In this document: positions 1-46,455 of the stretch, in pieces
Layout of the letters: each line of letters begins with the position of its first letter
Position numbering within the stretch: position 1 is the stretch's first letter
From: Amphiscolops sp. MND2022
Taxonomy: Eukaryota
Direction of reading: 5' to 3'
DNA length: 64,000 nucleotides
Assembly: GCA_964187785.1 (NCBI GenBank)
Contig: OZ076409.1
Location: forward strand, 15,440,001-15,504,000
Position numbers and translations under genes: made by a program
The notes under the pieces: generated by a model
Database searches by the model: none
What the model was told of the DNA's origin: nothing
Seen by the model: only the letters and a program-made list of their open reading frames with translations

Positions 1-16
1 CTGGCTTTGTTACCAC

Positions 17-244: not shown

Positions 245-504
245 AATATGTTTTTGAGGTTTTCAACGCGAGACATAATTCATCCACTCTGACATTTCTG
301 GGGCAGCTGCGAGTGATTGGGTATACTTAAACATGTGTAGAGTCAAAAAAACCTATATTCGACTAGATTATTGTAATGCAGTGATTTCTTTTACATCTGC
401 GTACGTAATGTCTGTGCTTATGTAAAGTCGGAAACAATAGACATACGGGCGATGCAAGTTCGTTATGGCGCAGGCGTTTACCACTATCACGGAGCTTGAA
501 TAAA

Positions 505-4805: not shown

Positions 4806-5775
4806 TCAACTTTTTTTGTGCTGCAACTTTTTGAAGCCGCCTTGAGAGATTTTCATACACAGATTTTTTCCAATGTGATCAAGTTTTTTTGTCTGATAAT
4901 AAATTCTTTTAACGTTTTTGGCTTATACAATAGACGTCTTCAATTTGCGTCCACATTAACCCAATATCATCTGTCTTCGAATGTAAAAACGCAATCTTCA
5001 CTTTATTCTAAACACCTAGCCCTTCATTGTTTTCCGACTACTGGTATCAAAATGTAACTACTGCAGACACAGCTCTCACTTCGCAACAATGAAAACGTTG
5101 GTAACATTATTCGATCTTGCGACCTGTGCCATTATGCACGTCTACATAGATCATAATGTTACCCAATGCGCTAGCCTAACAAACTTCGATCCACTTCGTT
5201 GAGCCGTGGCCCCGCTGTCGGATCAGTCTGTGAAGCTAAGGGTGATCTGGATTTGATCCCAACGTTTGAGCCATAGCCCCGTTGTGGAACATTCAGTGAG
5301 ACTCCCGCTTTTTGCCGTTTTTATATCAATCAAGGCGTTACACCGTTTACGTTGGAGTAAAAACTAATTGAAACCAATTCTGATAGCTCTAATCAACTTT
5401 ATCCAATTCAACTCTATCCAATTGGCGAAGTAAAAGCCCGCTTAGGTCTTTTTCAAGACTGGTTGACAGCTGTGAGCCCAGTGGGTGTTCTGGAACCTAT
5501 GTAGCATAAGTTAGTCGCAAAACAGGCCATCGGTAGTCCCGGCTAGAGTTTGCCTGATAGTGATCTGGGCCCCACGCTCTGACCCTAACGCGATGGAGTG
5601 AATTGTATGGATGAAATAACTTTCGAGCTAAGTTACTGAAGTCGCCCTTGAGTAAAAGTAATTTTGAACATTTCGATTGACCAAGTTTTCTTTAATTTTT
5701 CCCAGTCTAACAATACTTCAACCTACTATCAATTCTTTGTGAGTTTATTTTCCTTACATTTCAGACTCTCCAGTC

Positions 5776-6482
5776 ATGGAGCAAACTTCGTTTACAACTC
5801 TGATTGGTTCTGCAAGTGGTAAGCAGCTAACATCTATACTTTTACTCTCTACAAATTCCTCTATAGAAAACTCAGTTTGTTCAGATCTTATCAACGATAT
5901 AAAGAATATGGGGAAAAGATATTTGCACGAGCAAAAAGAAAATCAAAATTTAATGGCAAGTAAGTAAACATTTGTTTTTCCAAAAAATTGTACCATTTTC
6001 GAAACTTTCCATTCCATGCTTACTTTTTCAGAATATTCAAAACTGGAACAACAAAACGAAGGTGAGCCTATGTTTGGATTTATATCAACCAATATCAAAC
6101 GTCTAAAATCTATCAAAACGGTTTTAGAGCTGAAGAAGGAGCTGAAAGTAACACGCCTCAAGCTCGCTGCAGAAAAATCGCGCACGTTCAAATTGAAGAA
6201 AGGTTCACTATGGTTTTGAATACCCAATATTTGAATGAAATAAATGACATGACTCACATGAAATTTGTTTAGATTCTGAAACCTTAGCGACAGCCCGAAC
6301 ACGTTAGTCATATAATTGTTTTTCAAAAAATCAAATTTTTGGAACATTTTGCTATGCTCTGTAGGTTCCTTTGTTTCGTGAAACACATCTTCCATAATAA
6401 AAATTAATGATGTCTTATTGTTTCAGTTTGCCTGCAAATGGAGTACAGACACTTCAAAAGACGACATTCAGCTTCGTTTTAA
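5776..6482 (+). CDS. Putative spliced accessory gene, unknown product (copy of 21577-22283)
   Basis: Duplicate of the exon set at 21577 onward (offset 15801). Confidence 0.35.
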
Positions 6483-7082
6483 GATTGACATTTTGCTATA
6501 CATTATTGAAAAAATCTCTTCAATGTGTTTTTTCCTTCGATGTAAAAAAAGGATAGTCAGTTTACAGCTGGATTATGAATAACGCGAGGTTTCCTTTTTT
6601 TCGCATCCGTGAGGTAGAATACTTTCCATCAGTTAATCATAGCATTCTGCAGAGTCTGTAAAACGCAGTCAAAGTTTCAATTTTTCATACGCCTTATCTG
6701 CGTTTTGGTATTCAGGCATCTTAATGTATCAAAAAAGGTCGAGTCATTAAGACGGTGTTCGGTAATACGGAAATACTTTTCACAACTTGTCACTCTTTTT
6801 GTTTTTACAGCTTCTTATCTTTTTCAGAGAAAGTGGCTCTTCCATTAACTCTACAATGAATGCTGAACAAAATGCTGAAACGGTAAGAGGACATCTGTTT
6901 CTTTGATCTCATTATACATATATAAAGGGAGACCGGACAAATTCGCTGATTGGTTGAGATACGCTCGGTGATACGCGCTGCTGCAAAACAGTTCAAAAGA
7001 AGATTCCGAGGTACGCTGTAAGAAAATATGTTGCTGACTTTCGAAATAGACGACGTTTCAGATTATCCAGCTCTAATCAACA

Positions 7083-10000: not shown

Positions 10001-10460
10001 GTTACAAAAAGAATATAAGGAATAACTCAGTGAAGTTCCCAAAGAACGCGGCAAAACTTTCTTCGTGAGGGTTTTTCTTACGCTTTTTCCAGTGGTGCTC
10101 TCCAATTTTTCACATCTTTTCAATTTAAAACACTTTGCAAAACTTTCACCAAAGTTAAACCACGTTTCTTGACAAAAAAAGCTACAACAGCGTAGGAGTT
10201 TCCGTGGACGCTCTCTCCAAAGTTGTAGTCTATTTTTTTCCGTCTTTTTAACTTGACTAACTTTCGAAGTAAGTTGAAACCTGTTTGTGTTCACTATCAT
10301 ATTTTATTAATTTGAAATCAAGGGTCAATGGTGCAGAGGTTGTGTACTAGGCTCTCATAACAATCGCTTGAGTTCGAAACCCTCAATCAACTTTTTTTTT
10401 CGGAGAATGCGATCGTGATTCTGGAACATTGTCTGCGAAGTTAAACCACGTTTTTTGATA
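7083..10460 (+). repeat. tRNA-like Pol III cassette array (610-bp units) plus 5S-spacer-like block
   Basis: Same A/B-box cassettes; period ~610-615 bp (ORFs at 8233, 8843, 9458); tcaccgaagttaaaccac-type subrepeats at ~9790-10450. Confidence 0.85.
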
Positions 10461-10574
10461 AAGTCGATAAAGTCCACGAATTCAAGTGCAGACTTCATTG
10501 TTTAATGCAATTTTTTGTTACTTAGATAAAGTTTCAGAATTGGGCGCCAGCCCGAAGGCTGGCTTTGTTACCAC

Positions 10575-10802
10575 TCAGGCCTTTGAAAGCTGGTTAAGGC
10601 CCAAAGGATCCTGAGGGTCAAACTTGGCTTTCCGCTTCCGTCGATTCCGCTTCTTTGGGGGAGGCGGTTCTTGGGGAGAGGAATAGTCCAACACGGCTAG
10701 ATTACTATTTTGACTGCGCTTTCGCCTTGCTCTCTTTCGGACTCGAGGATCCTCCAGAGTGTCAGTTGTTGGTTCGAGCGGAATCAATTTCATAGCTAGC
10801 AA
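10575..10802 (-). CDS. Small basic ORF/exon (copy 2)
   Basis: Translation identical to 17-244. Confidence 0.35.
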   Translation of the reverse strand: MLAMKLIPLEPTTDTLEDPRVRKRARRKRSQNSNLAVLDYSSPQEPPPPKKRNRRKRKAKFDPQDPLGLNQLSKA

Positions 10803-13729
10803 AATATGTTTTTGAGGTTTTCAACGCGAGACTTAATTCATCCTTTCTGACATTTCTGGGGCAGCTGCGAGTGATTGGGTATACTTAAACATGTGTAGAG
10901 TCAAAAAAACCTATATTCGACTAGATTATTGTAATGCAGTGATTTCTTTTACATCTGCGTACGTAATGTCTGTGCTTATGTAAAGTCGGAAACAATAGAC
11001 ATACGGGCGATGCAAGTTCGTCATGGCGCAGGCGTTTACCACTATCACGGAGCTTGAATAAACAACCGATAGCGTAGAGGTTGCGTATCAGACTCTGCTT
11101 CCAGTGTTTTCAGTTCGATCCCCTCTATCGCTCCTTTTCTTTCAAATATTGTCAGCGTGAAGAGCCTTCCAAAAGCTCTGGGTTATTCTTTTCTCTTAGT
11201 GGGTCGCTTGCAACGACTGTTTTGCAAGATAACGTGGACTAGAGGTTACGTTGGTCCACAGGTTCGTTAGAGTGTTGTTTTGGTAGCTTTGGGTTCGATC
11301 TCCGTGGTGGACTTGGATGGGCACTTGAGTTGATCAATTTAAAAGTTCTTTCATTATTTGAATACGAATGCTTACTTTGGAAGCGGCAAAATATCAAGAT
11401 AGGGATTTTTGGACTCTTTCCAATACCGTTGTCCATTTTTGCAGTCTTTTCAACAGTCAATGGCGTAGTGGTTGCGTGTTAGATTTCAATTCCAATGTCT
11501 TGAGTTCGATTCCCTCAATCAAATTTTTTATAAAAATTTTGTCGGCGGAGACAGTATTTCAAAACCACTGGATTATTCTTCTCCCTTAATGGTGCGCTTA
11601 AAACCACTGTTTTGCAAGATATCGTGGCCTAGGGGTTGTGTTGGTGGTTAGGTTTGGTTTAGCGTTGTTCTGGTATCTTTGGGTTCGGTCCCCGGGGATG
11701 GAATTTGTTCCGCACTTGAATAGATAGAGTGTTATCGCTTACACCCAACTTGGTTGTTTAATTCGACACAACTACCGAATATAGCATTATGAATTCGTCC
11801 AAATTTGAATTGGAATGCTTACTTTGGAAGCGGCGAAAACTTCAGCATAGGGACTATTTGAACGTTTTTTCCAATGACGTTGACGATGTTTTCACATCGT
11901 TTCAACAGTCAATAGCGTAGTGGTTGTGTGATAGATTTCCATTCCAATGTCTTGAGTTCGATTCCTTCGATCAAAATTTTTTTCAAAAAATTGTCCGCGT
12001 GGACAGTCTTTCGGAAGCACTGGATTATTCCAATCACTTAGTGGTGAGCCTAAAACCACTGTTTCGCAAGATATCGTGGCCTAGAAGTTGCGTGTTAGAC
12101 TCACAACCCAATGTATTGAGTTCGATTCCCCCCATGGATTTTTTTTAAAAATATTTGTCAGCGTGAACAGTCTTTTGAAAGCTTTGGTGTTCTTCTTTTT
12201 CCTTAATGGTGCGATGCGCTTGCAACTACTGTTCAGCAAGAGATCGTGGTCTAGAGGTTGCGTTGGTTGTCAGGTTCGTCCGGGAGTTATTCTTGTAGCT
12301 TTGGGTTCAATCCCGGGATTGACATGGTTCAGCAGTTGAATTGATAGTGATATGGCTTAAACCCAATTTGATTGTTCATTTTTACACATACCGAATATAG
12401 CATTATGAATTCGTCCAAAATTTGAAATGGAATGCTTACTTTGGAAACGGCTAAAACTTCAGCATAGTGATTATTTGGATGTTCTTTCCAATGACGTTGT
12501 CCATTTTTACATCGTTTCAAAAGTCCATAGCGTAGTGGTTGCGTAATAGATTTCCATTCCAATGTCTTGAGTTCGATTCCCTCGATCAAGGTTTTTTAAA
12601 AAATTTGTCCGCGTGGACAGTCTTTCAGAAGCACTGGATTATTCCATTCACTTAGTGGTGCGCCTAAAACCACTGTTTCGCAAGATATCGTGGCCTAGAG
12701 GTTGCGTGTTAGACTCTCAACCCAATGTCTTGAGTTCGATTCCCGCCATCGATCTTTTTTTTAAAAAAATTGTCAGCGTGAACAGTCTTTCAAAAGCATT
12801 GGTGTTCATCTTTTTCCTTAATGGTGCGGTGCGCTTGCAACTACTGTTCAGCAAGAGATCGTGGGATAGAGGTTGCCTGAGTTCAAATCCCTTAGTCAAC
12901 TTTTATTTTACGAAGAGAGTGATTGTGGTTCAACAACATTGGCACCGAAGTTAAACCACGTTTTTTGACAAAATCGAAAAACCTCAAAATTATAACAACA
13001 TTAGTTAACGACAAATGCAGATAACAATCTTTGGAGGGCAACATGAATTACATCATGGTTTTCGCGGACGCCTTTTCTATAGGCTATGTCTATTTTTTCC
13101 ATCTTTTCACTTTGATCTACTTTGCAACAGTGTCACCGAAGTTAAAACTCACTTTGTTACAAAAAGAATATAAGGAATAACTCAGTGAAGTTCCCAAAGA
13201 ACGCGGCAAAACTTTCTTCGTGAGGGTTTTTCTTACGCTTTTTCCAGTGGTGCTCTCCAATTTTTCACATCTTTTCAATTTAAAACACTTTGCAAAACTT
13301 TCACCAAAGTTAAACCACGTTTCTTGACAAAAAAAGCTACAACAGCGTAGGAGTTTCCGTGGACGCTCTCTCCAAAGTTGTAGTCTATTTTTTTCCGTCT
13401 TTTTAACTTGACTAACTTTCGAAGTAAGTTGAAACCTGTTTGTGTTCACTATCATATTTTATTAATTTGAAATCAAGGGTCAATGGTGCAGAGGTTGTGT
13501 ACTAGGCTCTCATAACAATCGCTTGAGTTCGAAACCCTCAATCAACTTTTTTTTTCGGAGAATGCGATCGTGATTCTGGAACATTGTCTGCGAAGTTAAA
13601 CCACGTTTTTTGATAAAGTCGATAAAGTCCACGAATTCAAGTGCAGACTTCATTGTTTAATGCAATTTTTTGTTACTTAGATAAAGTTTCAGAATTGGGC
13701 GCCAGCCCGAAGGCTGGCTTTGTTACCAC

Positions 13730-13957
13730 TCAGGCCTTTGAAAGCTGGTTAAGGCCCAAAGGATCCTGAGGGTCAAACTTGGCTTTCCGCTTCCGTCGAT
13801 TCCGCTTCTTTGGGGGAGGCGGTTCTTGGGGAGAGGAATAGTCCAACACGGCTAGATTACTATTTTGACTGCGCTTTCGCCTTGCTCTCTTTCGGACTCG
13901 AGGATCCTCCAGAGTGTCAGTTGTTGGTTCGAGCGGAATCAATTTCATAGCTAGCAA
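13730..13957 (-). CDS. Small basic ORF/exon (copy 3)
   Basis: Translation identical to 17-244. Confidence 0.35.
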   Translation of the reverse strand: MLAMKLIPLEPTTDTLEDPRVRKRARRKRSQNSNLAVLDYSSPQEPPPPKKRNRRKRKAKFDPQDPLGLNQLSKA

Positions 13958-15817
13958 AATATGTTTTTGAGGTTTTCAACGCGAGACATAATTCATCCAC
14001 TCTGACATTTCTGGGGCAGCTGCGAGTGATTGGATATACTTAAACATGTGTAGAGTCAAAAAAACCTATATTCGACTAGATTATTGTAATGCAGTGATTT
14101 CTTTTACATCTGCGTACGTAATGTCTGTGCTTATGTAAAGTCGGAAACAATAGACATACGGCGATGCAAGTTCGTTATGGCGCAGGCGTTTACCACTATC
14201 ACGGAGCTTGAATAAACAACCGATAGCGTAGAGGTTGCGTATCAGACTCTGCTTCCAGTGTTTTCAGTTCGATCCCCTCTATCGATCCTTTTCTTTCAAA
14301 TATTGTCAGCGTGAAGAGCCTTTCAAAAGCTCTGGGTTATTCTTTTCTCTTAGTGAGTCGCTTACAACCACTGTTTTGCAAGATAACTTGGACTAGAGGT
14401 TACGTTGGTCCACAGGTTCGTTAGAGTGTTGTTTTGGTAGCTTTGGGTTCGATCCCCGTGGTGGACTTGGATGGGCACTTGAGTTGATCAATTTGAAAGT
14501 TCTTTCATTATTTGAATACGAATGCTTACTTTGGAAGCGGCAAAATTTCAAGATAGGGATTTTTGGACTCTTTCCAATACCGTTGTCCGTTTTTTGCAGT
14601 CTTTTCAAAAGTCCATAGCGTAGTGGTTGCGTAATAGATTTCCATTCCAATGTCTTGAGTTCGATTCCCTCGATCAAGGTTTTTTAAAAAATTTGTCCGC
14701 GTGGACAGTCTTTCAGAAGCACTGGATTATTCCATTCACTTAGTGGTGCGCCTAAAACCACTGTTTCGCAAGATATCGTGGCCTAGAGGTTGCGTGTTAG
14801 ACTCTCAACCCAATGTCTTGAGTTCGATTCCCGCCATCGATCTTTTTTTTAAAAAAATTGTCAGCGTGAACAGTCTTTCAAAAGCATTGGTGTTCTTCTT
14901 TTTCCTTAATGGTGCGGTGCGCTTGCAACTACTGTTCAGCAAGAGATCGTGGGATAGAGGTTGCTTGAGTTCAAATCCCTTAGTCAACTTTTATTTTACG
15001 AAGAGAGTGATTGTGGTTCAACAACATTGGCACCGAAGTTAAACCACGTTTTTTGACAAAATCGAAAAACCTCAAAATTATAACAACATTAGTTAACGAC
15101 AAATGCAGATAACAATCTTTGGAGGGCAACATGAATTACATCATGGTTTTCGCGGACGCCTTTTCTATAGGCTATGTCTATTTTTTCCATCTTTTCACTT
15201 TGATCTACTTTGCAACAGTGTCACCGAAGTTAAAACTCACTTTGTTACAAAAAGAATATAAGGAATAACTCAGTGAAGTTCTCAAAGAACGCGGCAAAAC
15301 TTTCTTCGTGAGGGTTTTTCTTACGCTTTTTCCAGTGGTGCTCTCCAATTTTTCACATCTTTTCAATTTAAAACACTTTGCAAAACTTTCACCAAAGTTA
15401 AACCACGTTTCTTGACAAAAAAAGCTACAACAGCGTAGGAGTTTCCGTGGACGCTCTCTCCAAAGTTGTAGTCTATTTTTTTCCGTCTTTTTAACTTGAC
15501 TAACTTTCGAAGTAAGTTGAAACCTGTTTGTGTTCACTATCATATTTTATTAAATTGAAATCAAGGGTCAATGGTGCAGAGGTTGTGTACTAGGCTCTCA
15601 TAACAATCGCTTGAGTTCGAAACCCTCAATCAACTTTTTTTTTCGGAGAATGCGATCGTGATTCTGGAACATTGTCTGCGAAGTTAAACCACGTTTTTTG
15701 ATAAAGTCGATAAAGTCCACGAATTCAAGTGCAGACTTCATTGTTTAATGCAATTTTTTGTTACTTAGATAAAGTTTCAGAAGTGGGCGCCAGCCCGAAG
15801 GCTGGCTTTGTTACCAC

Positions 15818-16045
15818 TCAGGCCTTTGAAAGCTGGTTAAGGCCCAAAGGATCCTGAGGGTCAAACTTGGCTTTCCGCTTCCGTCGATTCCGCTTCTTTG
15901 GGGGAGGCGGTTCTTGGGGAGAGGAATAGTCCAACACGGCTAGATTACTATTTTGACTGCGCTTTCGCCTTGCTCTCTTTCGGACTCGAGGATCCTCCAG
16001 AGTGTCAGTTGTTGGTTCGAGCGGAATCAATTTCATAGCTAGCAA
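15818..16045 (-). CDS. Small basic ORF/exon (copy 4)
   Basis: Translation identical to 17-244. Confidence 0.35.
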   Translation of the reverse strand: MLAMKLIPLEPTTDTLEDPRVRKRARRKRSQNSNLAVLDYSSPQEPPPPKKRNRRKRKAKFDPQDPLGLNQLSKA

Positions 16046-16305
16046 AATATGTTTTTGAGGTTTTCAACGCGAGACATAATTCATCCACTCTGACATTTCT
16101 GGGGCAGCTGCGAGTGATTGGGTATACTTAAACATGTGTAGAGTCAAAAAAACCTATATTCGACTAGATTATTGTAATGCAGTGATTTCTTTTACATCTG
16201 CGTACGTAATGTCTGTGCTTATGTAAAGTCGGAAACAATAGACATACGGGCGATGCAAGTTCGTTATGGCGCAGGCGTTTACCACTATCACGGAGCTTGA
16301 ATAAA

Positions 16306-19300
16306 CAACCGATAGCGTAGAGGTTGCGTATCAGACTCTGCTTCCAGTGTTTTCAGTTCGATCCCCTCTATCGATCCTTTTCTTTCAAATATTGTCAGCG
16401 TGAAGAGCTTTTCAAAAGCTCTGGGTTATTCTTTTCTCGTAGTGAGTCGCTTACAACCACTGTTTTGCAAGATAACTTGGACTAGAGGTTACGTTGGTCC
16501 ACAGGTTCGTTAGAGTGTTGTTTTGGTAGCTTTGGGTTCGATCCCCGTGGTGGACTTGGATGGGCACTTGAGTTGATCAATTTGAAAGTTCTTTCATTAT
16601 TTGAATACGAATGCTTACTTTGGAAGCGGCAAAATTTCAAGATAGGGATTTTTGGACTCTTTCCAATACCGTTGTCCGTTTTTTGCAGTCTTTTCAACAG
16701 TCAATGGCGTAGTGGTTGCGTGTTAGATTTCCATTCCAATGTCTTGAGTTCGATTCCCTCAATCAAATTTTTCATAAAATTTTTGTCGGCGGAGACAGTA
16801 TTTCAAAACCACTGGATTATTCTTCTCCCTTAATGGTGCGCCTAAAACCACTGTTTTGCAAGATATCGTGGCCTAGGGGTTGTGTTGGTGGTTAGGTTTG
16901 GTTTAGCGTTTTTCTGGTATCTTTGGGTTCGGTTCCCGGGGATGGAATTTGTTCCGCACTTGTATAGATAAAGTGTTATCGCTTACACCCAACTTGGTTG
17001 TTTAATTCGACACAACTACCGAATATAGCATTATGAATTCGTCCAAAATTTGAATTGGAATGCTTACTTTGGAAGCGGCGAAAACTTCAGCATAGGGACT
17101 ATTTGAACGATTTTTCCAATGACGTTGTCGATTTTTTCACATCGTTTCAACAGTCAATAGCGTAGTGGTTGTGTGATAGATTTCCATTCCAATGTCTTGA
17201 GTTCGATTCCCTCGATCAATTTTTTTTCAAAAAATTGTCCGCGTGGACAGTCTTTCAGAAGCACTGGATTATTCCAATCACTTAGTGGTGCGCCTAAAAC
17301 CACTGTTTCGCAAGATATCGTGGCCTAGAGGTTGCGTGATAGACTCACAACCCAATGTCTTGAGTTCGATTCCCGCCATCGATCTTTTTTCAAAAAAATT
17401 GTCAGCGTGAACAGTCTTTTAAAACCAATGGTGTTCTTCTTTTTCCTTAATGGTGCGCTTGCAACTACTGTTCAGCAAGAGATCGTGGCCTAGACGTTGC
17501 GTTGATTGTCAGGTTTGTCCGGGTGTTATTCTGGTAGCTTTGGGTTCAATCCCCGGGATGGACACGGTTCAGCGCTTGAATTGATCGTGTTATGGCTTAA
17601 ACCCAACTTGATTGTTCATTTCGACACATACCGTATATAAGACTCTAAGTTCGTTCATTATTTGAATACGAATGCTGACTTTGGAAGCGGCAAAAATTTC
17701 AACATAGTGATTTTTGGACTCCTTCCAATAACGTTGTCCATTTTTTCGCATCTTTTAAACAGTAAATGGCGTAGTGGTTGCGTAACAGATTGCCATACCA
17801 ATGTCTTGAGTTCGATTCCCTCGATCAAGATTTTTTGAAAAAAATTGTCCGCGTGGACAGTCTTTCAGAAGCACTGGATTATTCCAATCACTTAGTGGTG
17901 CGCCTAAAACCACTGTTTCGCAAGATATCGTGGCCTAGAGGTTGCGTGTTAGACTCACAACCCAATGTCTTGAGTTCGATTCCCGCCATCGATCTTTTTT
18001 CAAAAAAATTGTCAGCGTGAACAGTCTTTTAAAACCAATGGTGTTCTTCTTTTTCCTTAATGGTGCGCTTGCAACTACTGTTCAGCAAGAGATCGCGGCC
18101 TAGAAGTTGCGTTGATTGTCAGGTTTGTCCGGTGGTTATTCTGTTAGCTTTGGGTTCAATCCCCGAGATGGACACGGTTCAGCGCTTGAATTGATCGTGT
18201 TATGGCTTAAACCCAACTTGATTGTTCAATTCGACACATACCGTATATAAGACTCTAAGTTCGTTCATTATTTGAATACGAATGCTGACTTTGGAAGCGG
18301 CTAAAATTTCAACATAGTGATTTCTGGACTCCTTCCAATAACCTTGTCCATTTTTTCACATCTTTTAAACAGTAAATGTCGTAGTGGTTGCGTAATAGAT
18401 TGCCATACCAATGTCTTGAGTTCGATTCCCTCGATCAAGATTTTTTGAAAGAAATTGTCCGCGTGGACAGTCTTTCAGAAGCACTGGATTATTCCATTCA
18501 CTTAGTGGTGCGCCTGAAATCACTGTTTCGCAAGATATCGTGGCCTAGAGGTTGCGTGTTAGACTCTCAACCCAATGTCCTGAGTTCAATTCCCGCCATC
18601 GATCTTTTTTCAAAAATAATTGTCAGGGTGAACAGTCTTTTAAAAGCATTGGAGTTCTTGATGGTGCGGTGCGCTTGCAACTACAGTTCAGCAAGAGATC
18701 GTGGCCTAGAGGTTGCGTTGGTTTTCAATTTCGTCCGGGAGTTATTCTGGTAGCTTTGGGTTCAATCCCAGGGATTGACATGGTTCAGCACTTGAATTGA
18801 TATTGATATGGCTTAAACCCAATTTCATTGTTCATTTTGACACATACCGAATATAGCATTATGAATTCGTCCAAAATTTGAATTGGAATGCTTACTTTGG
18901 AAACGGCTAAAACTTCAGCGTAGTAACTATTTGGACGTTCTTTCCAATGACGTTGTACATTTTTGGCACATCGTTTCAACAGTCAATAGTGTAGTGGTTG
19001 CGTGATAGATTTCCATTCCAATGTCTTGAGTTCAATTCCGTCTATCAAGAATTTTTAAAAATTTGTTCGCGTGGACAGTCTTTCAGAACACTGGATTATT
19101 CCATTCACTTAGTGGTGCGCCTAAAACCATTGTTTCGCAAGATATCGTGGCCTAGAGGTTGCGTGTTAGACTCTCAACCCAATGCCTTGAGTTCGATTCC
19201 CGCCATCGATCTTTTTTTAAAAAAAATTGTCAGCGTGAACATAGCTGCAATCAACTGTGGATGGTGCAGAGGTCGTGTACTAGGCTCTCATAACAACGGC

Positions 19301-20605
19301 TTGAGTTCGAAACTCTTTGTCAACTTTTCTTTTGCGAAGAATGCGATTGTGATTCTGCAACATTGTCACCGAAGTTAAACCACGTTTTTTGAAAAGGTCG
19401 AATAACCACAAAAATATGACAAACCTAATTAACGGAAAAAAGCCGATAACATTTATTGGAAGGCAACATAACTTAACTCAAGGAAGTTTTCGTGGACGCC
19501 TTTTCCAATGGCAATGACCATTTTCTTCCATCTTTCCAAGGTGTCCCACTTTGTGACACTGTCACCGAAAGTGAACCTCACTTCGTAACAACATGAATAA
19601 AAGGAAAAACTCAGTGAAGTTTGCAAGGAACACGGCAAAATTTTCACTGTGAAGGTTTTGAACGCTTTTTTAAATGCTGTTCTCCATTTTTTCACATTTT
19701 TTCACATTGACCACACACTTTGCAATACTGTCACCAAAGTTAAAATACGAATTTGGAAAAAAAGCTACAACAAAGTGGGAGTTTTGGTGGACGCTTTCTC
19801 TACGGTTGATGTCTATTTGCTTCCAAATGTCCAATTTGACTATTTTTGCAACCCTGCTCCGACAATAACACCTGTTTTGCGTTCACTACCACAACGCTGA
19901 ATTCAACAGTGGTTAATGCAGTGGTCGTGTACTAGGCTCTCATACCAACTGTTCGACTTCAAAACCGTTAGTTGAACCACGTTTTTTGACACAGTCGAAA
20001 AACCACGAAATTAGTCAACGAAAAAAGCAGAAAACTTTCATTGGAAGGCAACATAAAATACAGCATGAAAGTTTTCGTGGAATCCAAAGTCTATGTCTTT
20101 TTTTTTCCATTTTTTTCAATTTGACCCTCTTTGCAACACTGTTACACTGCAACACCGAAGTTAAACCTCATTTTGTGGCAAAATAAAATTGACGCATAAG
20201 TCAGTGAAGTTTCCAAACCACGCAGCAAAACGTTTACCGTTGGGGGTTTTTTGAACGCTTTTTCCTATGGTGTTCTCCAATTTTCCACATCTTTTCACAT
20301 TGACCCCAACTTGGCAATACGGTCACCAAAGTTAAACCACGTTTTTGACAAAAAGCTACAACTTCGGCAAGATATCGTGGCCAGGAGGTTGTCTTGAGTT
20401 CGATTCCCTCTATCAACTTTGTTTTTCAAAATTCTAATTCTCTCTTTCTAATGCTAAGTTAACTATCACATAGCTGCAAGCAACACTCGATGGCACAGAA
20501 GTCATACAAATATGTGTCTCTAATAAGAAGCTCATTTCAACTGTCCATGGTGCAGAGGTCGGGAACTGGGCAGCCACTCCAGTGGTCCTGAGTTCGAACC
20601 ACTCT
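16306..20605 (+). repeat. tRNA-like Pol III cassette array plus 5S-spacer-like repeats (copy of 505-4805)
   Basis: Duplicate at offset 15801; same A/B-box cassettes. Confidence 0.85.
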
Positions 20606-22655: not shown

Positions 22656-25600
22656 ATGAATGCTGAACAAAATGCTGAAACGGTAAGAGGACATCTGTTT
22701 CTTTGATCTCATTATTCTGGAACGACTTGTCAAAACAGTGTCGTTTCTTTTCAGGAAGTCCCTCGCAGATCGCGAGGTCGTCCCCGTTCTAGCAATCCTA
22801 GCATTGAAGCAGTTCAAAGACGACGAAGAAGGGGTGACGCGCAACCTCCGTTAGGCCTTCAATCTCTGTGTTTTTTAGCGGACTCGGATTCAGTTCTCGA
22901 TAGTTTTGTTGGCAAAATTGGGGACGTGATATGTCCACATTGTGATGCTTTTTTGTTCAAGCAAGAGACTCACTCAATTTGTTGTAATCGAGGTTCCATC
23001 CGGATTGATTGTTTCCCTGAACCTCCGCCTTTTCTGAAATACCTTTGGACTACTCAGAATCAAGATGGAGTTGTCTTTCGGAAGTATGCGAGGCAGTTAA
23101 ACAATTGTTTAGCTCTAGCTTCTGTTTATATGAAAAACCTAACTGCACCTGGCTCAAGGTATCAACCAACTGTAATCATTCAAGGTAAAACGTACACACT
23201 CTTGGGACCCTTGCAAGGAGAGCACAATCAGCCACCGAAATTTGCTCAACTTTATGTTCACGATTCCAGCAATGAACGAATACTAGACCAACGGATGAAA
23301 ATTCTAAAGGCATCATCTCTGTCTCACTCAGATGTTGTCATACTTCGCAACATTGTTGATCAACTCCAAGTAAATTCTTTACGTGATAACGAGAAACCAG
23401 TGTGTTTTATAAACTAATTTTTCCTTCTTTACAGATGGAATTAAGCGAAAATCACTCCTACATTCCCGACTTCCTCCAAGTTTGCCAATTTCCCGACCAC
23501 GCGGTTGAAGGTTTACAGTTTCATATCAACCCAAACAGAAGACCCCAGAACGAACATGCACGGAGGTACAACTTGAGTCTGAAAGAAGTTTCGGTTCTCA
23601 AAGACAGTGAAAGCAATGCTGATGCGGGCTTCGTGCTGCGGAAACGTGGGGGTGGTCTCACAACCATCTCTGAAACTCATAGATCGAAAGATCCCTTGCA
23701 TTTCGTCCTATTTTTCCCGCATGGAACAGATGGTTGGCATAATCAATTGAAGCAAAAGTACGTTTTTGATATATCAAATTGAATTGCGTCAATCTTTTTG
23801 CCAAGTTTTTGGTATCTTGGCAAATTGCTACGTCCCGTAAAACAAACTTTGGATACGCAGAAAAGAAGTAGTTGAAAGTATGTGTGATACTTTTTGACTA
23901 TCGTTGTTTTGTTTTAGCTCAGAAAGCTCCAAAGCACTGTCCTGTAAAGAATATTATGCATACATTTTGCACAAGCGACCTCCGACAGTGAATTACCTTC
24001 ACTTTGGAAAACGACTTTACCAAGAGTTTCTGTGCATGGCATGGTCGTCTGTTGAAGCACAAAGACTTATGTTCATACGCAGTCATCAACAGCAATTGCG
24101 AGCTGATCTGTATTGCAATTTGATGGACAATCCTCATTCTTCTGTTTCTGAAGGTGGCAAGTTGGGAGTCAGAAGAATTCTTCCACCGTCATTTGAAGGT
24201 TCTCCAAGAGATCGTAACAGACGGTTAGGTTTGTTTCAGTTTAATTATCTTGTGACGTATTGTTTTTTCCTTAATAAATATGGTTTAGGTATCTTGATGG
24301 ACTAGCTGTTTGTCAAAAGTTTCACAAGCCCGATCTCTTCATTACTTTCACGTGTAATCCCAAGTGGCCTGGAATTCTGACGAGCTTGAAAGAGAACCAG
24401 TTAGCTGAGGACCGCCCAGACATAGTAGCTCGCGTATTCCATTTGAAACTCAAAGGGTTGATTCAAGATCTGAGGCACAAAGGTAAAACAACACTTTTTG
24501 TACTAAAATCCTTTCCTGGTGAACCTAATTGTTCCGAAAAAAATTTTCTTTCTCATTCGTTTAGAAGTTTTTGGAAAAGTGCTCGCTATCATGTCAGTTG
24601 TGGAATTCCAGAAACGTGGGTTACCTCATGCACATATCTTATTAATACTCTCATCGGACGTTTCGGCCTTCATCTCAAATCAGTTAGACAGTATTGTCAC
24701 TGCAGAAATACCATCAGTTGACGGAGTTACACCTGACAGACGCGAGCGTCAGAGTAAACTTCTCACGTTGGTTCAAACCCATATGATGCATGGACCTTGT
24801 GGCTCCTTGAATGATAAAAGTCCGTGCATGAGCAACGGAAAATGTACAAAAAAATACCCCAAAAAGTTTCAACAACAAAGTTCATGTCTTGCTGAAACAG
24901 GCTATCCCATGTATAGAAGAAGATCACCTGAAAATGGAGGACATGTTGTGAGCGTTAAAGGGCACACACTAGACAATCGTTTTGTTGTTCCCTACAACGC
25001 GTTTCTTCTCCTCAAGTATCAAAGCCATTTGAATGTTGAAGTTTGCGCTAACGCATTGGCAGCAAAACATCTTTATCTGTACATCACAAAGGTTAGATGT
25101 CAAAATTAGCTAAGTGTAAGTTTCCTTTGACAATACATCTTCGATAGCTTTTGACGTTTTGCTTCACATGCTGCGCCAATTTTTGATATTTTCAAGGGAC
25201 TTTTCTCAATCTAACGTAATGCAGATTAATCTGATCCCTTATGGTTCCGTCCTTGATTTCTTTTCTCTTCTTTACAGGGGGGTGATCGGTCCATGGTTAA
25301 TATTGCAGATGACACAAATACCGATGAAATTGAAAGTTTCCGTGACATGAGGTCCTTTGGGGCAAGTGAAGCTGCTTATCGGTTGCTTGGTTTGGACATT
25401 CATTATCGCCATCCATCAGTGTATGCCCTGCCTGTCCATCTTGAGAGAAGACATTTAGTATTGTTCAGTGACTCTTCCAACCTGTCGACCTCAACAACTT
25501 TGCACAAGACAGAGCTGACGGAATTTTTTGCCTTCAATGCCAAAAACCCTTCATGTGTCATTAAATACTTGGTATTTCCTGAACACTTTATATGGAGTAA

Positions 25601-27776
25601 AACCAGCAAAAAATGGGTTGAACGAAAAGTAAACACTGGAACAATTGGCAGAATCAATGTTGTTTCGCCAGCAGCTGGAGATGTCTTTTACTTGAGAATA
25701 TTGCTCAACATGGAGCATTGCACAGGTTTGTTAATTTGATACGTCATTGTTTGTCTTCGGGTTTCTCACTAACAAATTCTGTTCAGGTAAAAAAAGCTTT
25801 GATCACTTGCTTGAAGTAAACGGGACAAAATACAGCAGCTTCCAAGAAGTTTGTCGAGTCCTTGGTTTGCTGAAAGACGACAATGAGTGGATGCATCTTT
25901 TAACCGAAGCCGCATTCACCAACACCAGCGCAAAAATGCGGCAACTTTTTATTATATTGCTCATGTTTTGTGAAGTCAGCAACCCGTTAGAACTTTTTGA
26001 ATTGCACTATCTATCCATGTGTGAAGATTTTCCTGAAAGCCAATGTGAACTTGATCGTAGATCTTGGGTCCTCCTCCAGTTGCAAAAGTATCTTCATGCA
26101 TTCGAAAAGTCATTAGTTGATTTTGGTTTTACATTACCAACGGAAATGCACTCTGTGAATCAGGACTGCAATTATCGTTTTGATGAAGAAAGGGTACGAA
26201 GAACTCAACTGAACCAATCAGAAATAAGTCGAAGTGTTGCTCAGTTGAATAGTGAACAAAGAGTGTTCTTTGACACAGTTGTGGGGTCCTTGATTCCTGA
26301 CAGCCAGTGTCGTTGTTTTTTTCTAGATGCCCCTGGTGGCACAGGAAAGACATTCACTCTGAATGTCCTTTTGGCTACTATTCGTTCAAATGGCAATAAC
26401 GCAATAGCTGTGGCGACCAGTGGTATTGCAGCTGCCTTACTTGATGGTGGTAGAACATTCCACTCGAAACTGAAGTGCCCATTGAAGGTCGACAACGACA
26501 CTCATCTCTCAATTCCTGCACAGTCTGATCTAGCTGATTACATAAGGTCTGTTAAAGTTATAGTTTGGGATGAAGCTCCAATGGCAAACAAGCAGTTGTT
26601 AGAGTGCTTGGACAGAAGTCTTCGTGATATCAATTGCAACAATGATCCCTTCGGTGGCAAAGTAGTGGTGCTAACTGGTGACTTCAGACAGGTTTTGCCA
26701 GTTTTGAAAGGAGGTTCCAGGGCCCAAATTGTGGGTGCAGCTTTGAAAAATTCTTCTCTATGGTGCCTCTTCAAGACGTTTCAGCTGACTAAAAACATGC
26801 GTCTGCGTGCGACTAACCTTTATTTTGGGCAATGGCTGCTCAAAGTGGGAAACGGCGAAGTCGAAGTTGACTTGGAAGGCCGACTGAGAATTCTACCTTC
26901 GCTGGTACTTCCCACAAGACCATCTATGTCCAAACACGATCGTGCTGAAGTTATTGCTGACTGGGCTTTTGGCACTGACGTGAGTATCAGTTTTTATTAG
27001 GAAGCTTTTCTATTATCTGATTAAAAAATTTTCATGATGTTTCTTCAGTCTCCATCAACTGCAACTCCGCGATGCAGAACGGTCATTTTGTGTACTACCA
27101 ATAAGTCAGCAGAATTCATTAACAGCAAAGTTATTCAGAAAATGCCAGGTTTGTTCTGAAAGTTTGAAAGATTTGGATTGAATCGGTTAGGTATGGTTTT
27201 ACCTTTTATACATTTTTAGGCCAATTCTTCGAATGCCGAAGCGCTGATAGAACACTGGAAGTAGCGGACCAATGTAGATTTCCCGTGGAATATCTCAACA
27301 CATTGAATCCATCTGGTCTTCCACCACATACGTTACAACTGAAACCAGGTTGTTTGATCATTTTGCTGCGTAATCTTAACCCATCTCTCGGTTTGTGTAA
27401 CGGAGCGAGGTTGATTCTAATCACAATAAGCAGACATAGTTACCTCGAAGCTACTTCGATTGGTGGAAACCTTTCTGGGTCGGACGTGTTGATACCACGT
27501 ATCGATTTGACTACAGAACAAGACTTCGACATGCCAGTAACTTGGGTTAGAAGACAATTTCCCATACGTCCCGCATTCGCAATGACAATCAACAAAAGTC
27601 AGGGTCAAACTTTTGACAAAGTTGGTTTGTACTTAGAAGAACCTGTATTTTCTCATGGTCAATTGTATGTTGCTTTGTCCCGATGTTCATCTGCTGCCAA
27701 CCTTAGATTACTTTTACCACCCAAAGATGATGGCACTTTTTGGATGAAAAACGTAGTTTACAAAGAAATTTTTTGA
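22656..27776 (+). CDS. Helitron RepHel protein (AT-hook, Cys/Zn motif, HUH Rep endonuclease, Pif1 helicase); 10 exons, 1429 aa
   Basis: Exons 22656-22682, 22755-23369, 23435-23757, 23918-24223, 24289-24482, 24565-25091, 25278-25725, 25787-26979, 27049-27148 and 27220-27776 join through GT-AG introns into 4290 nt in one frame. Motifs: RRSRGRPRS, CPHC...CC, PDLFITFTCNPKW, VEFQKRGLPHAH, DAPGGTGKT, VWDEAPM, GDFRQVLPV, FAMTINKSQGQT, HGQLYVALSR. Start codon is tentative. Confidence 0.93.
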
Positions 27777-28101
27777 ATATCAGTCTCTTTTAAAAAGCAC
27801 CCAAGCTAGCCACTGGTAGTTTAGGGGAGTAAAATCAAAGGACAAGATTAGATGTTTTGAAAATCCAACACATGTATTTTGTGCTCTAATCAACTTTTTT
27901 GTGCTCTAATCAACAGTGGATAACGTTGTGCTATTCTGGTAACTTTGTGTTCGAGCTCTAACGTGGACTTCGATCCGCACTTGAGTTGATAGAGTCTTAT
28001 GGCTTCACCCAACTTGGTTGTTTAATTTGACAATTACCATACAAGGCAAAAGTCGGGGAAAACTTTCATTCCGATTTATATCAATTAAACCCCTTTAAAT
28101 A

Positions 28102-28130
28102 GCCGCCGTAGGCGGCAACGGGTCTGCTAG
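28102..28130 (+). other. Helitron 3' terminal hairpin and CTAG
   Basis: gccgccgtaggcggc aacgggtctg ctag|t. Confidence 0.9.
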
Positions 28131-28690
28131 TCAGGCTAAAAGCAAAGAGTCAATTTTTGGAGCGCGAGACTCCTATCTGCGGTACGGACTTACCATTACC
28201 AGCCAAAAACTTGTTTTGAGGAGAAATTCTCATGAAAAGACGACGTTTCAAGTTATTGACATCTGATGAAACAAAAATATTCCAGAAAAATTGTGAGAAA
28301 GCAAAATTTTGACTCTATTACGAAAATGTATGCTGAAAAGCATAAATTAGTAAGCTTAAAAATGAAATTCCATGTATTATCAAAAGTCGACTCAGGAGTG
28401 TGAAAAACACGTTTTAGGGGTAATTTTGGGCCCTCTTTCCAATGCCGTTGTCCGTTTTTTGCTATCTGTTCATTTTGACCCCTTTTGCAAAACTGTCACC
28501 GAAGTTAAACCACATTTTGTGAAAATAGTAAAAATGACATAACTCAATGAAAATTCAAGTGATGGCGGCGAAAATTTCAGCATGGGGGTTTTTTTGGACG
28601 CTCTTTCTAATGGCGTTGTCCGTTTTTTGCTATCTTTTCAATTTGACCCCTTTTGCAAAACTGTCACCGAAGTTAAACCACATTTCTGAC

Positions 28691-28696
28691 AAAAAA
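28691..28696 (-). terminator. Pol III terminator (T6) of 5S gene; also at 31234-31239
   Basis: aaaaaa on + strand directly adjoining the 5S 3' end. Confidence 0.8.
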
Positions 28697-28814
28697 GGCT
28701 ACAACACCTGGTGTTCCCAAGCGGTCTCCCATCCAAGTACTAACCAGGCCCTATGTTGTTTAACTTCGGTGATCGGACGAGAACCGGTGCATTCAACATG
28801 GTATGGTCGTAGCC
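28695..28814 (-). rRNA. 5S rRNA
   Basis: Minus strand reads GGCTACGACCATACCATGTTGAATGCACCGGTTCTCGTCCGATCACCGAAGTTAAAC...AGTACTTGGATGGGAGACCGCTTGGGAACACCAGGTGTTGTAGCCTT; stem I GGCTACGAC/GTTGTAGCC; box C intact. Confidence 0.97.
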
Positions 28815-28841: not shown

Positions 28842-29042
28842 TGCTTAACAACAAAATTACGTACAATGATACGAAAATTTTCTCGGTCAAAATACGCGTA
28901 ACTTTTAAGTTAGTGCAGACTAGCTTGTTCCTTGTTCAAAAAATTGGGCAGCAGACCACTTTCGCAGTCTGCTTTCAAATAAAACTTATCAATAGGGTTG
29001 GAATACTTACCTATTTAATAAGTTTATCACAACAATTAGGCT

Positions 29043-30662
29043 TTTAAAGATTGTATTGGACCTTTTAATGTATAAATCAAATAGTCTTTATAGTAAGTCT
29101 AAGTACAAATTGTATAAAAGATATAAACGGTATAAAAGGTGTACAGAGTACTGTATAAGAGTATGAAAAAGTACTGAGTGAAAAATTGAAGCTTGTTTGA
29201 AAGTTCAGGCAAAAAAGAACGTTGTTTTTTTGAAGAAATTAGTATAATGTAGTCTTGAGTATGTGGGGTAAAAGTGATGTTTGCTCCTGGATGGAGTTAT
29301 TGGATCAAACTGTTTTTTGGCTTTTTTAATAGCATGGTATTGAACTTTAAAAGACTTGGGATTTGAGGGTGTAGCATATCAAGGAGTGGGTTTTGAGTTA
29401 TTTGTGTTTGTTACAAAAAATAGCATCAATCTTGTTTTTCAAATGGGATAAAGTCATATCTAACTTTTCCTTGGAGATTTACTAAATAAATGATGTTCTC
29501 GGGTTTGTAAAAGAAGGCATCCAGTCTTCCTTTGATGTATTTGAAGGCATCGTAGTTGGCGATCTTTGAAGAGGAGGTTCGGCTTCTCCACTCTTTGTCT
29601 TCAAACATCTCTTGTTGTGCTGATTCCGATAGTTTTTGGACATATCTTAGTTGGTTAACAACAACTTTTTTATCGTTAATGATGTTGATATCACCTCCTT
29701 TGTGATCACATTCTGCTAGTTTAGGATATTTTGATTCCATTCTGTTGACAGTTTGAATAATTTCGTTGTCCACATCGAGGTAAAACGGTAAAAAAGCAAA
29801 ATCGGGATCCACTTTCGTGGCTTTGTTTTCAGGTTCATCAGCTGACTCCTCCTCCTCCTCAGAAGGTATTGGCTCAGTATCTTCTTTGCTAAGATTGTTT
29901 TTTTGTGTAGAGTGATGTTTGCATTGCTTCTTATGATGGCCCATAAATTGGCGTTTTCCTTCGTTACAATTCTCACATTGTAACAAGGTTTGAATGTAAC
30001 ATTTGAAGGGAATTTCATTAGTAACAAACTGGTTCAAAAAGGCTTGTTGGTTCCATGATTTGATGTTTTCTAATTGGCATTGATTGGCAATCTCTATTTC
30101 AGCATAACAGATTCCAGTAAAGGCTTCGATGTCGTCAGAAATTCTTACTCTTTGGTGGCGTAATTTGGAAATTTTGTACTCTTGCAGATTACAAGCCTCC
30201 ACAATCTCTCCATCTTCTAAAAAGTGTGGTAAATTGCGGAATTTCAAAGTGAATTGCTTTGGGTAGGAGTTAGAATTTACATCACTGTTTTGGAATGCAT
30301 AAATTATCCGGTTTTTGTAAGGAATTCCTTTAAGAAGTAGGTTTTTGAAGTCGTTTTCTATCGAGTTTGGAGCAATAATTTTGATGCATTCAAGCTTCTT
30401 TTCATGCTCATGCGCTGGCGCATGTTTGGACACGTACGATTTAATGCATGTCACGCTGTCAATATGAGTAGGCGATAAAGCATGTAAAAGCTTGCAAAGG
30501 AATTCTTTGTAAACAGCTTTCTTTATGTTTGGGCTGGTAATTTCTTCTTTTGTGTAAGGAATGATGAATTCTGCTGTCAATAAAGGCATTGTTCAGGTAA
30601 TTTTCGTCTTCTCTGCCGCAGCAGTGAGAGTAGAGTTAGCAAATAATCGCTGACACACGCAG
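29043..30662 (-). mobile_element. Non-autonomous ORF1-only non-LTR retroelement (L1/Tx1-like) in the 5S spacer
   Basis: Flanked by perfect 18-bp direct repeat TATCACAACAATTAGGCT (29025-29042 and 30663-30680); 73-nt 5' UTR, single ORF, 3' UTR with ATTAAA ending ...CTTTAAA. Confidence 0.8.
29426..30589 (-). CDS. L1/Tx1-type ORF1 protein (RRM-like region, CCHC-variant knuckle, acidic linker), 387 aa, intronless
   Basis: FTLKFRNLPHFLEDGEIVEAC...FTGICYAEIEI resembles the Tx1 ORF1 RRM; CENC-x9-H-x4-C knuckle; no RT or endonuclease motifs. Confidence 0.72.
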   Translation of the reverse strand: MPLLTAEFIIPYTKEEITSPNIKKAVYKEFLCKLLHALSPTHIDSVTCIKSYVSKHAPAHEHEKKLECIKIIAPNSIENDFKNLLLKGIPYKNRIIYAFQNSDVNSNSYPKQFTLKFRNLPHFLEDGEIVEACNLQEYKISKLRHQRVRISDDIEAFTGICYAEIEIANQCQLENIKSWNQQAFLNQFVTNEIPFKCYIQTLLQCENCNEGKRQFMGHHKKQCKHHSTQKNNLSKEDTEPIPSEEEEESADEPENKATKVDPDFAFLPFYLDVDNEIIQTVNRMESKYPKLAECDHKGGDINIINDKKVVVNQLRYVQKLSESAQQEMFEDKEWRSRTSSSKIANYDAFKYIKGRLDAFFYKPENIIYLVNLQGKVRYDFIPFEKQD

Positions 30663-31237
30663 TATCACAACAATTAGGCTAAAAGCAAAGAGTCAATTTT
30701 TGGAGCGCGAGACTCCTATCTGCGGTACGGACTTACCATTACCAGCCAACAACTTGTTTTGAGGAGAAATTCTCATGAAAAGACGACGTTTCAAGTTATT
30801 GACATCTGATGAAACAAAAATATTCCAGAAAAATTGTGAGAAAGCAAAATTTTGACTCTATTACGAAAATGTATGCTGAAAAGCATAAATTAGTAAGCTT
30901 AAAAATGAAATTCCATGTATTATCAAAAGTCGACTCAGGAGTGTGAAAAACACGTTTTAGGGGTAATTTTGGGCCCTCTTTCCAATGCCGTTGTCCGTTT
31001 TTTGCTATCTGTTCATTTTGACCCCTTTTGCAAAACTGTCACCGAAGTTAAACCACATTTTGTGAAAATAGTAAAAATGACATAACTCAATGAAAATTCA
31101 AGTGATGGCGGCGAAAATTTCAGCATGGGGGTTTTTTTGGACGCTCTTTCTAATGGCGTTGTCCGTTTTTTGCTATCTTTTCAATTTGACCCCTTTTGCA
31201 AAACTGTCACCGAAGTTAAACCACATTTCTGACAAAA

Positions 31238-31357
31238 AAGGCTACAACACCTGGTGTTCCCAAGCGGTCTCCCATCCAAGTACTAACCAGGCCCTATGTT
31301 GTTTAACTTCGGTGATCGGACGAGAACCGGTGCATTCAACATGGTATGGTCGTAGCC
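31238..31357 (-). rRNA. 5S rRNA (copy 2)
   Basis: Same sequence as 28695-28814. Confidence 0.97.
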
Positions 31358-31585
31358 GATCATTGTAAAATCAATAGCTTTATATGCTTAACAACAAAAT
31401 TACGTACAATGATACGAAAATTTTCTCGGTCAAAATACGCGTAACTTTTAAGTTAGTGCAGACTAGCTTGTTCCTTGTTCAAAAAATTGGGCAGCAGACC
31501 ACTTTCGCAGTCTGCTTTCAAATAAAACTTATCAATAGGGTTGGAATACTTACCTATTTAATAAGTTTATCACAACAATTAGGCT

Positions 31586-32618
31586 TTTAAAGATTGTATT
31601 GGACCTTTTAATGTATAAATCAAATAGTCTTTATAGTAAGTCTAAGTATAAATTGTATAAAAGATATAAACGGTATAAAAGGTGTACAGAGTACTGTATA
31701 AGAGTATGAAAAAGTACTGAGTGAAAAATGGAAGCTTGTTTGAAAGTTCAAGCAAAAAAGAACGTTGTTTTTTTGAAGAAATTAGTATAATGTAGTCTTG
31801 AGTATGTGGGGTAAAAGTGATGTTTGCTCCTGGATGGAGTTATTGGATCAAACTGTTTTTTGGCTTTTTTAATAGCATGGTATTGAACTTTAAAAGACTT
31901 GGGATTTGAGGGTGTAGCATATCAAGGAGTGGGTTTTGAGTTATTTGTGTTTGTTACAAAAAATAGCATCAATCTTGTCTTTCAAATGGGATAAAGTCAT
32001 ATCTAACTTTTCCTTGGAGATTTACTAAATAAATGATGTTCTCGGGTTTGTAAAAGAAGGCATCCAGTCTTCCTTTGATGTATTTGAAGGCATCGTAGTT
32101 GGCGATCTTTGAAGAGGAGGTTCGGCTTCTCCACTCTTTGTCTTCAAACATCTCTTGTTGTACTGATTCCGATAGTTTTTGGACATATCTTAGTTGGTTA
32201 ACAACAACTTTTTTATCGTTAATGATGTTGATATCACCTCCTTTCTGATCACATTCTGCTAGTTTAGGATATTTTGATTCCATTCTGTTGACAGTTTGAA
32301 TAATTTCGTTGTCCACATCGAGGTAAAACGGTAAAAAAGCAAAATCGGGATCCACTTTCGTGGCTTTGTTTTCAGGTTCATCAGCTGACTCCTCCTCCTC
32401 CTCAGAAGGTATTGGCTCAGTATCTTCATTGCTAAGATTGTTTTTTTGTGTAGAGTGATGTTTGCATTGCTTCTTATGATGGCCCATAAATTGGCGTTTT
32501 CCTTCGTTACAATTCTCACATTGTAACAAGGTTTGAATGTAACATTTGAAGGGAATTTCATTAGTAACAAACTGGTTCAAAAAGGCTTGTTGGTTCCATG
32601 ATTTGATGTTTTCTAATT
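31586..32618 (-). mobile_element. Second copy of the ORF1-only element at the same spacer site, cut by the gap
   Basis: Same 3' junction next to the target motif at 31568-31585. Confidence 0.8.
31969..32618 (-). CDS. ORF1 protein copy 2, C-terminal part (N-terminus in the gap)
   Basis: Matches the C-terminal half of the 387-aa ORF with 4 amino-acid differences. Confidence 0.72.
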
Positions 32619-43200: not shown

Positions 43201-43272
43201 ACTCCTCAGTGTCTTCTGTTCTACAACTGATATTCGTCTTTTTAAAAATCTCCTAGTGAAAATAAATGTGTA

Positions 43273-46446: not shown

Positions 46447-46455
46447 CAGATTAAG

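Follow-up and report, generated by a model that had tools for sequence, protein, structure and literature searches.

Multicopy RNA genes are safe havens for non-LTR elements and for Dada, and Helitrons carry large cargo. The locus described here raises the question whether a Helitron may also come to reside in a 5S rRNA array by more than chance. In the window, by which we mean the whole 64,000-nt stretch of Amphiscolops sp. MND2022 DNA that was analysed, a Helitron ends inside an 18-bp sequence of the 5S spacer, and intact copies of the same sequence flank a short retroelement in the adjoining unit. The features around this meeting point are as follows.

28102..28130, plus strand: Helitron 3' end, a 6-bp GC hairpin, 10 nt and CTAG
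28131..28137, plus strand: last 7 bases of the 18-bp repeat, with C for T at 28132, in register with offset 2543
28131..28695, plus strand: 5S spacer (28436-28706 is common to the Helitron cargo)
28696..28814, minus strand: 5S rRNA gene (Rfam RF00001, 117.5 bits)
29025..29042, plus strand: 18-bp direct repeat at the 3' end of the ORF1 element, intact copy
29043..30662, minus strand: ORF1-only non-LTR element of 1,620 bp, with a single ORF at 30589-29426 (387 aa)
30663..30680, plus strand: 18-bp direct repeat at the 5' end of the ORF1 element, intact copy
31239..31357, minus strand: second 5S rRNA gene (Rfam RF00001)
31568..32618, minus strand: third 18-bp repeat (31568-31585) and second ORF1 element, ending at a 200-N gap (32619-32818)

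The GCCGCC-GTA-GGCGGC hairpin occupies 28102-28116 and is followed, 10 nt on, by CTAG at 28127-28130, the arrangement (3' CTRR with a short hairpin before it) by which the Helitron class is recognised. Its folding gives a z of -2.16, with 5 of 200 shuffles folding equally well, the 29-mer at 28102-28130 has a single occurrence in the window, and the stop codon of the RepHel gene lies 350 nt ahead of this end. From 28131 on, the DNA is that of a 5S unit and aligns with 30674 onward at an offset of 2543; 9 substitutions separate the two over 1,945 bases, the first being the C for T at 28132. The junction was seen within the window on its right side, from which the A|T register is read; it is an A|T step between bases 11 and 12 of the 18-bp repeat. 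Projected onto a 5S unit, it falls 222 nt upstream of where the gene starts, and the next 5S gene has its 3' end 565 nt away. The initial annotation, which had placed the Helitron 3' end within the 18-bp repeat, is borne out in this respect: hairpin and CTAG are followed by spacer at an A|T step, with one base different (28132).

How much weight this position carries depends on what chance would give. Within the 18-bp stretch fall 4 of the 203 AT steps of the 2543-bp unit and 2 of the 65 of the empty unit, and chance overlap, given an insertion in the unit, is about 2-3%, a post hoc figure for a single event. That both elements lie within this one stretch, which precedes the start of 5S by about 220 bp, is the part of the proposed shared spot that stands. 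The AT-richness of the target is unremarkable, as 80% of the unit's AT steps equal or exceed it, and this weakness counts against the explanation that we prefer. So does the mismatch at 28132, just 2 nt from the junction, despite 5S units differing at 0.46% of sites, which is the substitution probability at a given base. Under a clean insertion the C would be a substitution or a spacer variant; because CTAG|TC is also what a tail-to-head joint would leave, a remnant of such a joint is a possible alternative, discussed below.

The retroelement at 29043..30662 fits a HAL1-like ORF1-only non-LTR element. Direct repeats of exactly 18 bp stand on both flanks, as expected of a TSD, and the 1,620 bp between them have one 387-aa ORF and no ORF2, with ATTAAA about 20 nt ahead of an end of 3-4 A and hardly any A tail. 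The element sits in the spacer, 211-228 bp upstream of 5S; the 5S genes at 28696..28814 and 31239..31357 are both intact and complete, on the minus strand. Of those window ORFs that were scanned, none was recognised as an ORF2 partner. The ORF1 protein has no meaningful Pfam match, and an RRM or zinc-knuckle type domain was found by Pfam in 0 of 30 relatives; its language-model neighbours are zf-CCHC/RRM and ZCCHC3-like proteins (0.87-0.90, a lead only), its structure model (pLDDT 68) gives weak matches to a tandem RRM fold (best E 0.003), and all 11 of the sequences compared keep the knuckle Cys/His residues unchanged. It is a putative protein of two RRM-like domains and a Cys/His knuckle. 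Relatives in prokaryote genomes numbered 0 of 31 candidates.

The intact 18-mer has 3 matches in the window (29025-29042, 30663-30680 and 31568-31585) against a chance expectation of 0.10. The initial annotation had taken it for a target motif, a reading that we do not retain, as the two ORF1 units are array duplicates that share 99.5% identity, and hence not independent insertions; repeated targeting is therefore not demonstrated by them. As far as the sequence goes, the 18-mer is a duplication that was amplified along with the array, its role as a target being unproven. An exact scan of viral sequences gave 10 loci for it, none with likeness past the 18-mer itself. In TPRT, the ends of a TSD mark the endonuclease nicks. 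The Helitron junction lies 7 nt from one end of the 18-bp repeat and 11 nt from the other, and therefore, if the 18-mer is a TSD, the Helitron and the retroelement use different bonds.

Further ORF1 copies were sought in a protein collection that keeps one contig per protein, the longest, and in which empty 5S units carry no marker. By exact sequence, 5 of 8 window proteins are absent from it, and a 676,304-bp contig, taken to be the one with this locus, accounts for four window proteins. The ORF1 cluster at 90% has 36 members; the 16 listed fall on contigs of 10 sizes, 5 of them on the 676,304-bp contig. Of the first ten relatives of the element, 7 are represented on contigs of 1.4-1.7 kb, either themselves or through members of their clusters. 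The gap at 32619-32818 cuts the second ORF1, and the full-length P0018 has the same three private changes; the 676,304-bp contig bears P0018 and three more ORF1 copies, and thus more ORF1 units than the window displays. The wider ORF1 family (P0003-P0011, P0039) comprises at least 10 clusters at 40-80% identity, several of them on element-sized contigs of 1.4-1.7 kb.

The Helitron itself extends far to the left of the junction, with these parts.

1..6914, plus strand: truncated second copy of the Helitron (arrays and unique region), compared with 15802-22714
6907..6926, plus strand: putative Helitron 5' end, the sole head-like pattern match in the window on either strand
7066..20400, plus strand: cargo of tRNA-like A-box/B-box cassette arrays with T-runs and 5S-spacer homologs (consensus scan)
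9919..10189, plus strand: 5S-spacer-like module, 75% identical to 28436-28706
19493..20362, plus strand: two more diverged 5S-spacer-like modules (19502-19772 and 20083-20362), 71% and 72% identical to the spacer
22926..27776, plus strand: RepHel gene, 9 exons mapped from tblastn blocks and a GT-AG chain, open frame of about 1,360 aa
25068..25070, plus strand: His codon at the first Y2 tyrosine, from homolog comparison
27900..28040, plus strand: cargo repeat fragment in the RepHel 3' untranslated part, 79-81% identical to 1111-1211, 11668-11768 and 16912-17012

The full element most likely spans about 6907-28130 (~21.2 kb), because the sole head-like motif begins at the break of the sister copy. 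The head-like pattern was modelled on Helitron ends, and the candidate first bases of the head are TC at 6907 (after A), TC at 6909 and TA at 6915 (after A). The sister copy (1-6914) has 21 differences in 6,915 columns from 15802-22714 and breaks off in an intron that precedes the mapped RepHel exons. The unique region at 20400-22700, upstream of the mapped exons, has short exon-like pieces, which might belong to the N-terminus of RepHel or to another gene.

RepHel has Helitron_like_N and PIF1 matches, that is, the HUH motif and the PIF1 helicase of the class, and it matches animal and plant Helitrons. The first Y2 position is Tyr in all 87 pattern-matched homologs (120 examined); in the RepHel family members it is Tyr in 3 of 5, Asn in one and His in one, the window copy. 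This copy does not have both of the Y2 tyrosines expected of an autonomous element, and since His replaces the first of them it is probably not autonomous now, while the family keeps Tyr members. In Helraiser, a Y727 mutant lost transposition in cells and kept cleavage (PMC4778049). The window copy and that on a 37,658-bp contig have different substitutions at the same two RepHel codons (P0336, P0337, P0349, P0353), one of which is the catalytic Tyr (His in the window, Asn in the other). Exact scans with the Helitron ends found 0 viral and 0 prokaryote loci; 2 metagenome matches were rejected as chance, with a GC content of 56-62% and no likeness past 20-21 nt.

The cargo is unusual in carrying predicted Pol III promoter elements. 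With an A-box/B-box consensus, 6909-28130 has 49 A+B cassettes on the plus strand, 37 of them followed by a T-run, and 3 on the minus strand, whereas elsewhere there are 0-1 in the 31-kb right arm and 0 in the 5S units. Real tRNA genes were considered for these cassettes and rejected, as cloverleaf models were not passed (ARAGORN found 0 tRNA genes in the cargo, and the best Rfam tRNA hit was 26.7 bits against a cut-off of 29). The arrays belong inside the Helitron, because a piece of the cargo repeat is found downstream of RepHel, ahead of the terminal hairpin. A GC-rich stretch with a perfect 7-bp hairpin at its start also occurs inside the Helitron (1-250, 10537-10800, 13692-13950 and 15780-16050); it looks like a small RNA gene and has no Rfam match at E up to 1.

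The second component of the cargo is homologous to the 5S spacer. Three non-redundant modules are 71-76% identical, on the same strand, to spacer 28436-28706, with a local score of 267 against 53-66 for three controls, and near-identical copies of the module at 9919-10189 occur at 13074-13344 and 15162-15432. The modules at 19502-19772 and 20083-20362 both finish in an A-run followed by GCTACAAC, and all 7 interior copies of the A-run and GCTACAAC in the window share one stopping point, about 10 nt inside the 3' end of 5S, so that module ends resemble the real flank, a terminator A-run with about 10 nt of the 5S 3' end. Cargo homology to the proximal spacer (28131-28435), the upstream spacer or the 5S body is not above controls, apart from a weak extension to about 28300 solely in alignments anchored on the shared module. 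The spacer at 28436-28706 further contains, twice, a 15-mer that matches 5S nt 43-57 exactly, and this 15-nt match recurs in the cargo, whereas 200 shuffles reach at most 11. We take 5S nt 43-57 to be the region of box A. A subunit tree does not fix the direction of the exchange, and the conservation of 0.91 against 0.62 is biased by the picking of copies by motif. The modules are 71-76% identical, whereas divergence among the insertion neighbours is 0.3-0.5%, and therefore the Helitron lineage and the spacer would have exchanged DNA long before the present insertion. In some modules (3960-4030, 10177-10240), a near-complementary stretch and then a T-run stand past the A-run and GCTACAAC, resembling a 50-nt hairpin with a stem like 5S helix I.

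To the right of the array, the window has other material. Immediately after the gap, 33000-43500 is 10 kb with a GC skew of -0.3 to -0.48 and without a long ORF, probably a decayed retroelement; decayed non-LTR fragments lie at 44800-45400 and 51600-53700, with a weak RVT_1 match at 51691-52200. At 45900-48600, two minus-strand 8-bp hairpins followed by CTAG (46155, 48464) stand around short tandem repeats and probably represent another Helitron-like family, a non-autonomous one. A large host gene, presumably one for an axonemal dynein heavy chain, has exons scattered over 54000-64000.

Whether other copies of the Helitron also lie near 5S units was approached by proxy, as RepHel- and ORF1-bearing contigs of equal size in bp in the protein collection, a measure that gives no distances. 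Three RepHel exon clusters (5, 6 and 7 members, all included) cover 8 contig sizes, and of the 7 contigs other than that of the window at least 2 (37,658 and 325,040 bp) equal ORF1-bearing contigs in bp; the remaining 5 have no match among the ORF1 members listed (16 of 36). Among the 19 members of nine other Helitron clusters, 0 match ORF1-bearing contigs (2/7 against 0/19, p ~0.065 by hand, with control families that may come from other assemblies). If copies are independent, the probability of at least two chance matches is 0.008 to 0.00004 for assumed assemblies of 0.1-1.4 Gb. RepHel copies have private changes only and no shared derived change, so alleles and paralogs are inseparable, and the 37,658- and 325,040-bp contigs may be alleles of the window locus. 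The 37,658-bp contig also bears a diverged ORF1 (P0004), 51% identical and absent from the window. Three of the unmatched RepHel contigs (14.6, 24.4 and 26.1 kb) are about the size of one element. Spacer-like cargo and co-located contigs are hints that make a family-level link with 5S arrays plausible.

Considering these lines of evidence together, the reading that we prefer, at just short of an even chance, is that of a Helitron of the canonical HLE1 type, ~21.2 kb long and adjoined on its left by a truncated sister copy, from a family with a long affinity for 5S arrays. The 5S units would already have held the ORF1-only retroelement, its 18-bp duplication having been amplified with the unit, when RepHel linked the CTAG terminus to the T at an A|T step, in what would be ordinary rolling-circle strand transfer. 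The family may have adjoined 5S units repeatedly, with an ancient spacer swap either by 3' read-through capture or through a relic left in the spacer, and cargo upstream of the ORF would require a nested or tandem step. Helitrons are known to capture DNA by read-through (PMC4778049), and a nested or tandem step is argued for Paramecium Helitrons (PMC13085455). One accessible patch, located about 220 bp upstream of where 5S begins, might serve both elements with different enzymes and at different bonds, the partner enzyme of the retroelement having used it separately from the Helitron; open chromatin is preferred 14.2-fold by Helraiser (PMC4778049). More speculatively, the A/B-box cassettes and the 5S-identical 15-mer might allow a circular intermediate to bind Pol III factors and to co-localise with 5S clusters. 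The strongest form of this reading, a 5S-array-targeting Helitron that always lands a few hundred bases upstream, with a homing cargo of predicted Pol III cassettes and a 5S promoter piece and a landing patch shared with the ORF1-only retroelement, appears doubtful to us.

The alternative that survives best is an untargeted Helitron with a lucky 18-bp overlap, the co-located contigs being allelic and the modules deriving from a single ancient capture. We regard it as unlikely, yet as a serious competitor: there is a single junction, 5 of the 7 other contigs are unmatched among the ORF1 members listed, RepHel copies have private changes only, and Helraiser requires just AT, in open, AT-rich DNA (PMC4778049). 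However, three coincidences are needed, namely the overlap of 2-3%, old spacer homologs in the very element beside that spacer, and an allele with a different ORF1 type.

An improbable alternative is rearrangement, in which CTAG|TC is a tail-to-head joint of a tandem array; a deletion would have left 2-3 nt of the next copy and fused them to the spacer at AGGCT. The Helitron would then have inserted elsewhere, and we rank such a remnant below clean insertion. It would explain the C at 28132 without mutation, precise CTAG-to-TC joints are described for Helraiser circles and tandem arrays (PMC4778049, PMC5876387), and the left breakpoint has 7-9 nt of intron/head identity, if the head starts with TC. 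However, a break at most 3 nt from the head must also hit the A|T register, as about 8% of steps do (203/2543), the microhomology is 0-1 nt, and several first bases of the head would fit.

Lower still in our estimation stands strict sequence specificity, whereby RepHel recognises the spacer motif and every array copy sits at the same bond, possibly with a preference for A|TC, which resembles its own head. The A|T step in register inside the motif and the co-located contigs are in keeping with it, and the initial annotation, in treating Helitrons as lacking gene-specific targeting, had put the matter too strongly, since targeting of a fixed repeat, the telomeric one, is proposed for Paramecium Helitrons (PMC13085455), which gives a targeted Helitron a precedent. 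However, there is one 5S junction, and a further one, at 6907-6915, falls within an intron of the element itself rather than in 5S spacer. Finally, entry of the Helitron into a nick made by the retroelement's endonuclease, one of the hotspot mechanisms first proposed, is rejected on position and deserves almost no credence: both elements do fall within 18 bp, but the junction is 7 and 11 nt from the repeat ends marking the putative nicks, an ORF2 partner was not found among the window ORFs scanned, and Helraiser cleaves DNA with its own nuclease (PMC4778049).

Under the preferred reading, a family-level affinity for 5S arrays, indirect signs suggest long residence in 5S clusters, which would be new for rolling-circle elements. 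If the family is indeed targeted, Helitron target choice becomes testable, as a matter of sequence, chromatin or cargo tethering, and a natural rule for landing beside 5S genes would be of interest to vector design; if the event is a one-off, the Pol III promoter cargo remains unusual. Among DNA transposons that are not rolling-circle, Starship is reportedly linked to 5S genes. A Starship paper has 21 mentions of 5S rDNA (PMC11162782). The literature searched yielded no Helitron that targets 5S or any other Pol III gene, and supplements, Repbase and subscription papers may hold cases; Helitrons go unmentioned in the main text of a 2024 review of rDNA-transposon interplay (PMC10946416), and a term search of another rDNA paper (PMC10319768) likewise gave none aimed at 5S or Pol III genes.

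The known systems each share part of this arrangement. Dada-5S is likewise a DNA transposon tied to 5S genes, but it has a DDE transposase, inserts in the gene and is not rolling-circle (PMC8869645). Mutsu of zebrafish is a non-LTR element in 5S arrays (PMC5340908); it is autonomous, with two ORFs and about 5 kb, and inserts inside the 5S gene (PMC5340908, PMC3706591), whereas the ORF1-only element here has 1.6 kb and one ORF and lies in the spacer, leaving both 5S genes intact. HAL1 (half-L1) is non-autonomous and encodes ORF1p alone, but is described in mammals and derives from L1 (PMC5753468), in contrast to an element with a predicted RRM-RRM-knuckle ORF1, almost no A tail and a fixed place in 5S units. 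The telomeric Helitrons of Paramecium form a separate clade with a telomeric-repeat target shown over many copies (PMC13085455), while here the target is a Pol III gene array, RepHel is animal/plant-like and the junction is single. Canonical Helitrons (Helraiser/Helibat1) share the RepHel HUH and PIF1 domains, the 3' hairpin and CTAG, the A|T junction, tandem copies and captured host DNA (PMC4778049, PMC5876387). Unlike Helraiser with its 5.3 kb, however, the element described here has about 21 kb, an intron-containing gene that has lost the first Y2 tyrosine, and a cargo of Pol III cassettes and 5S spacer, and it sits in a 5S array.
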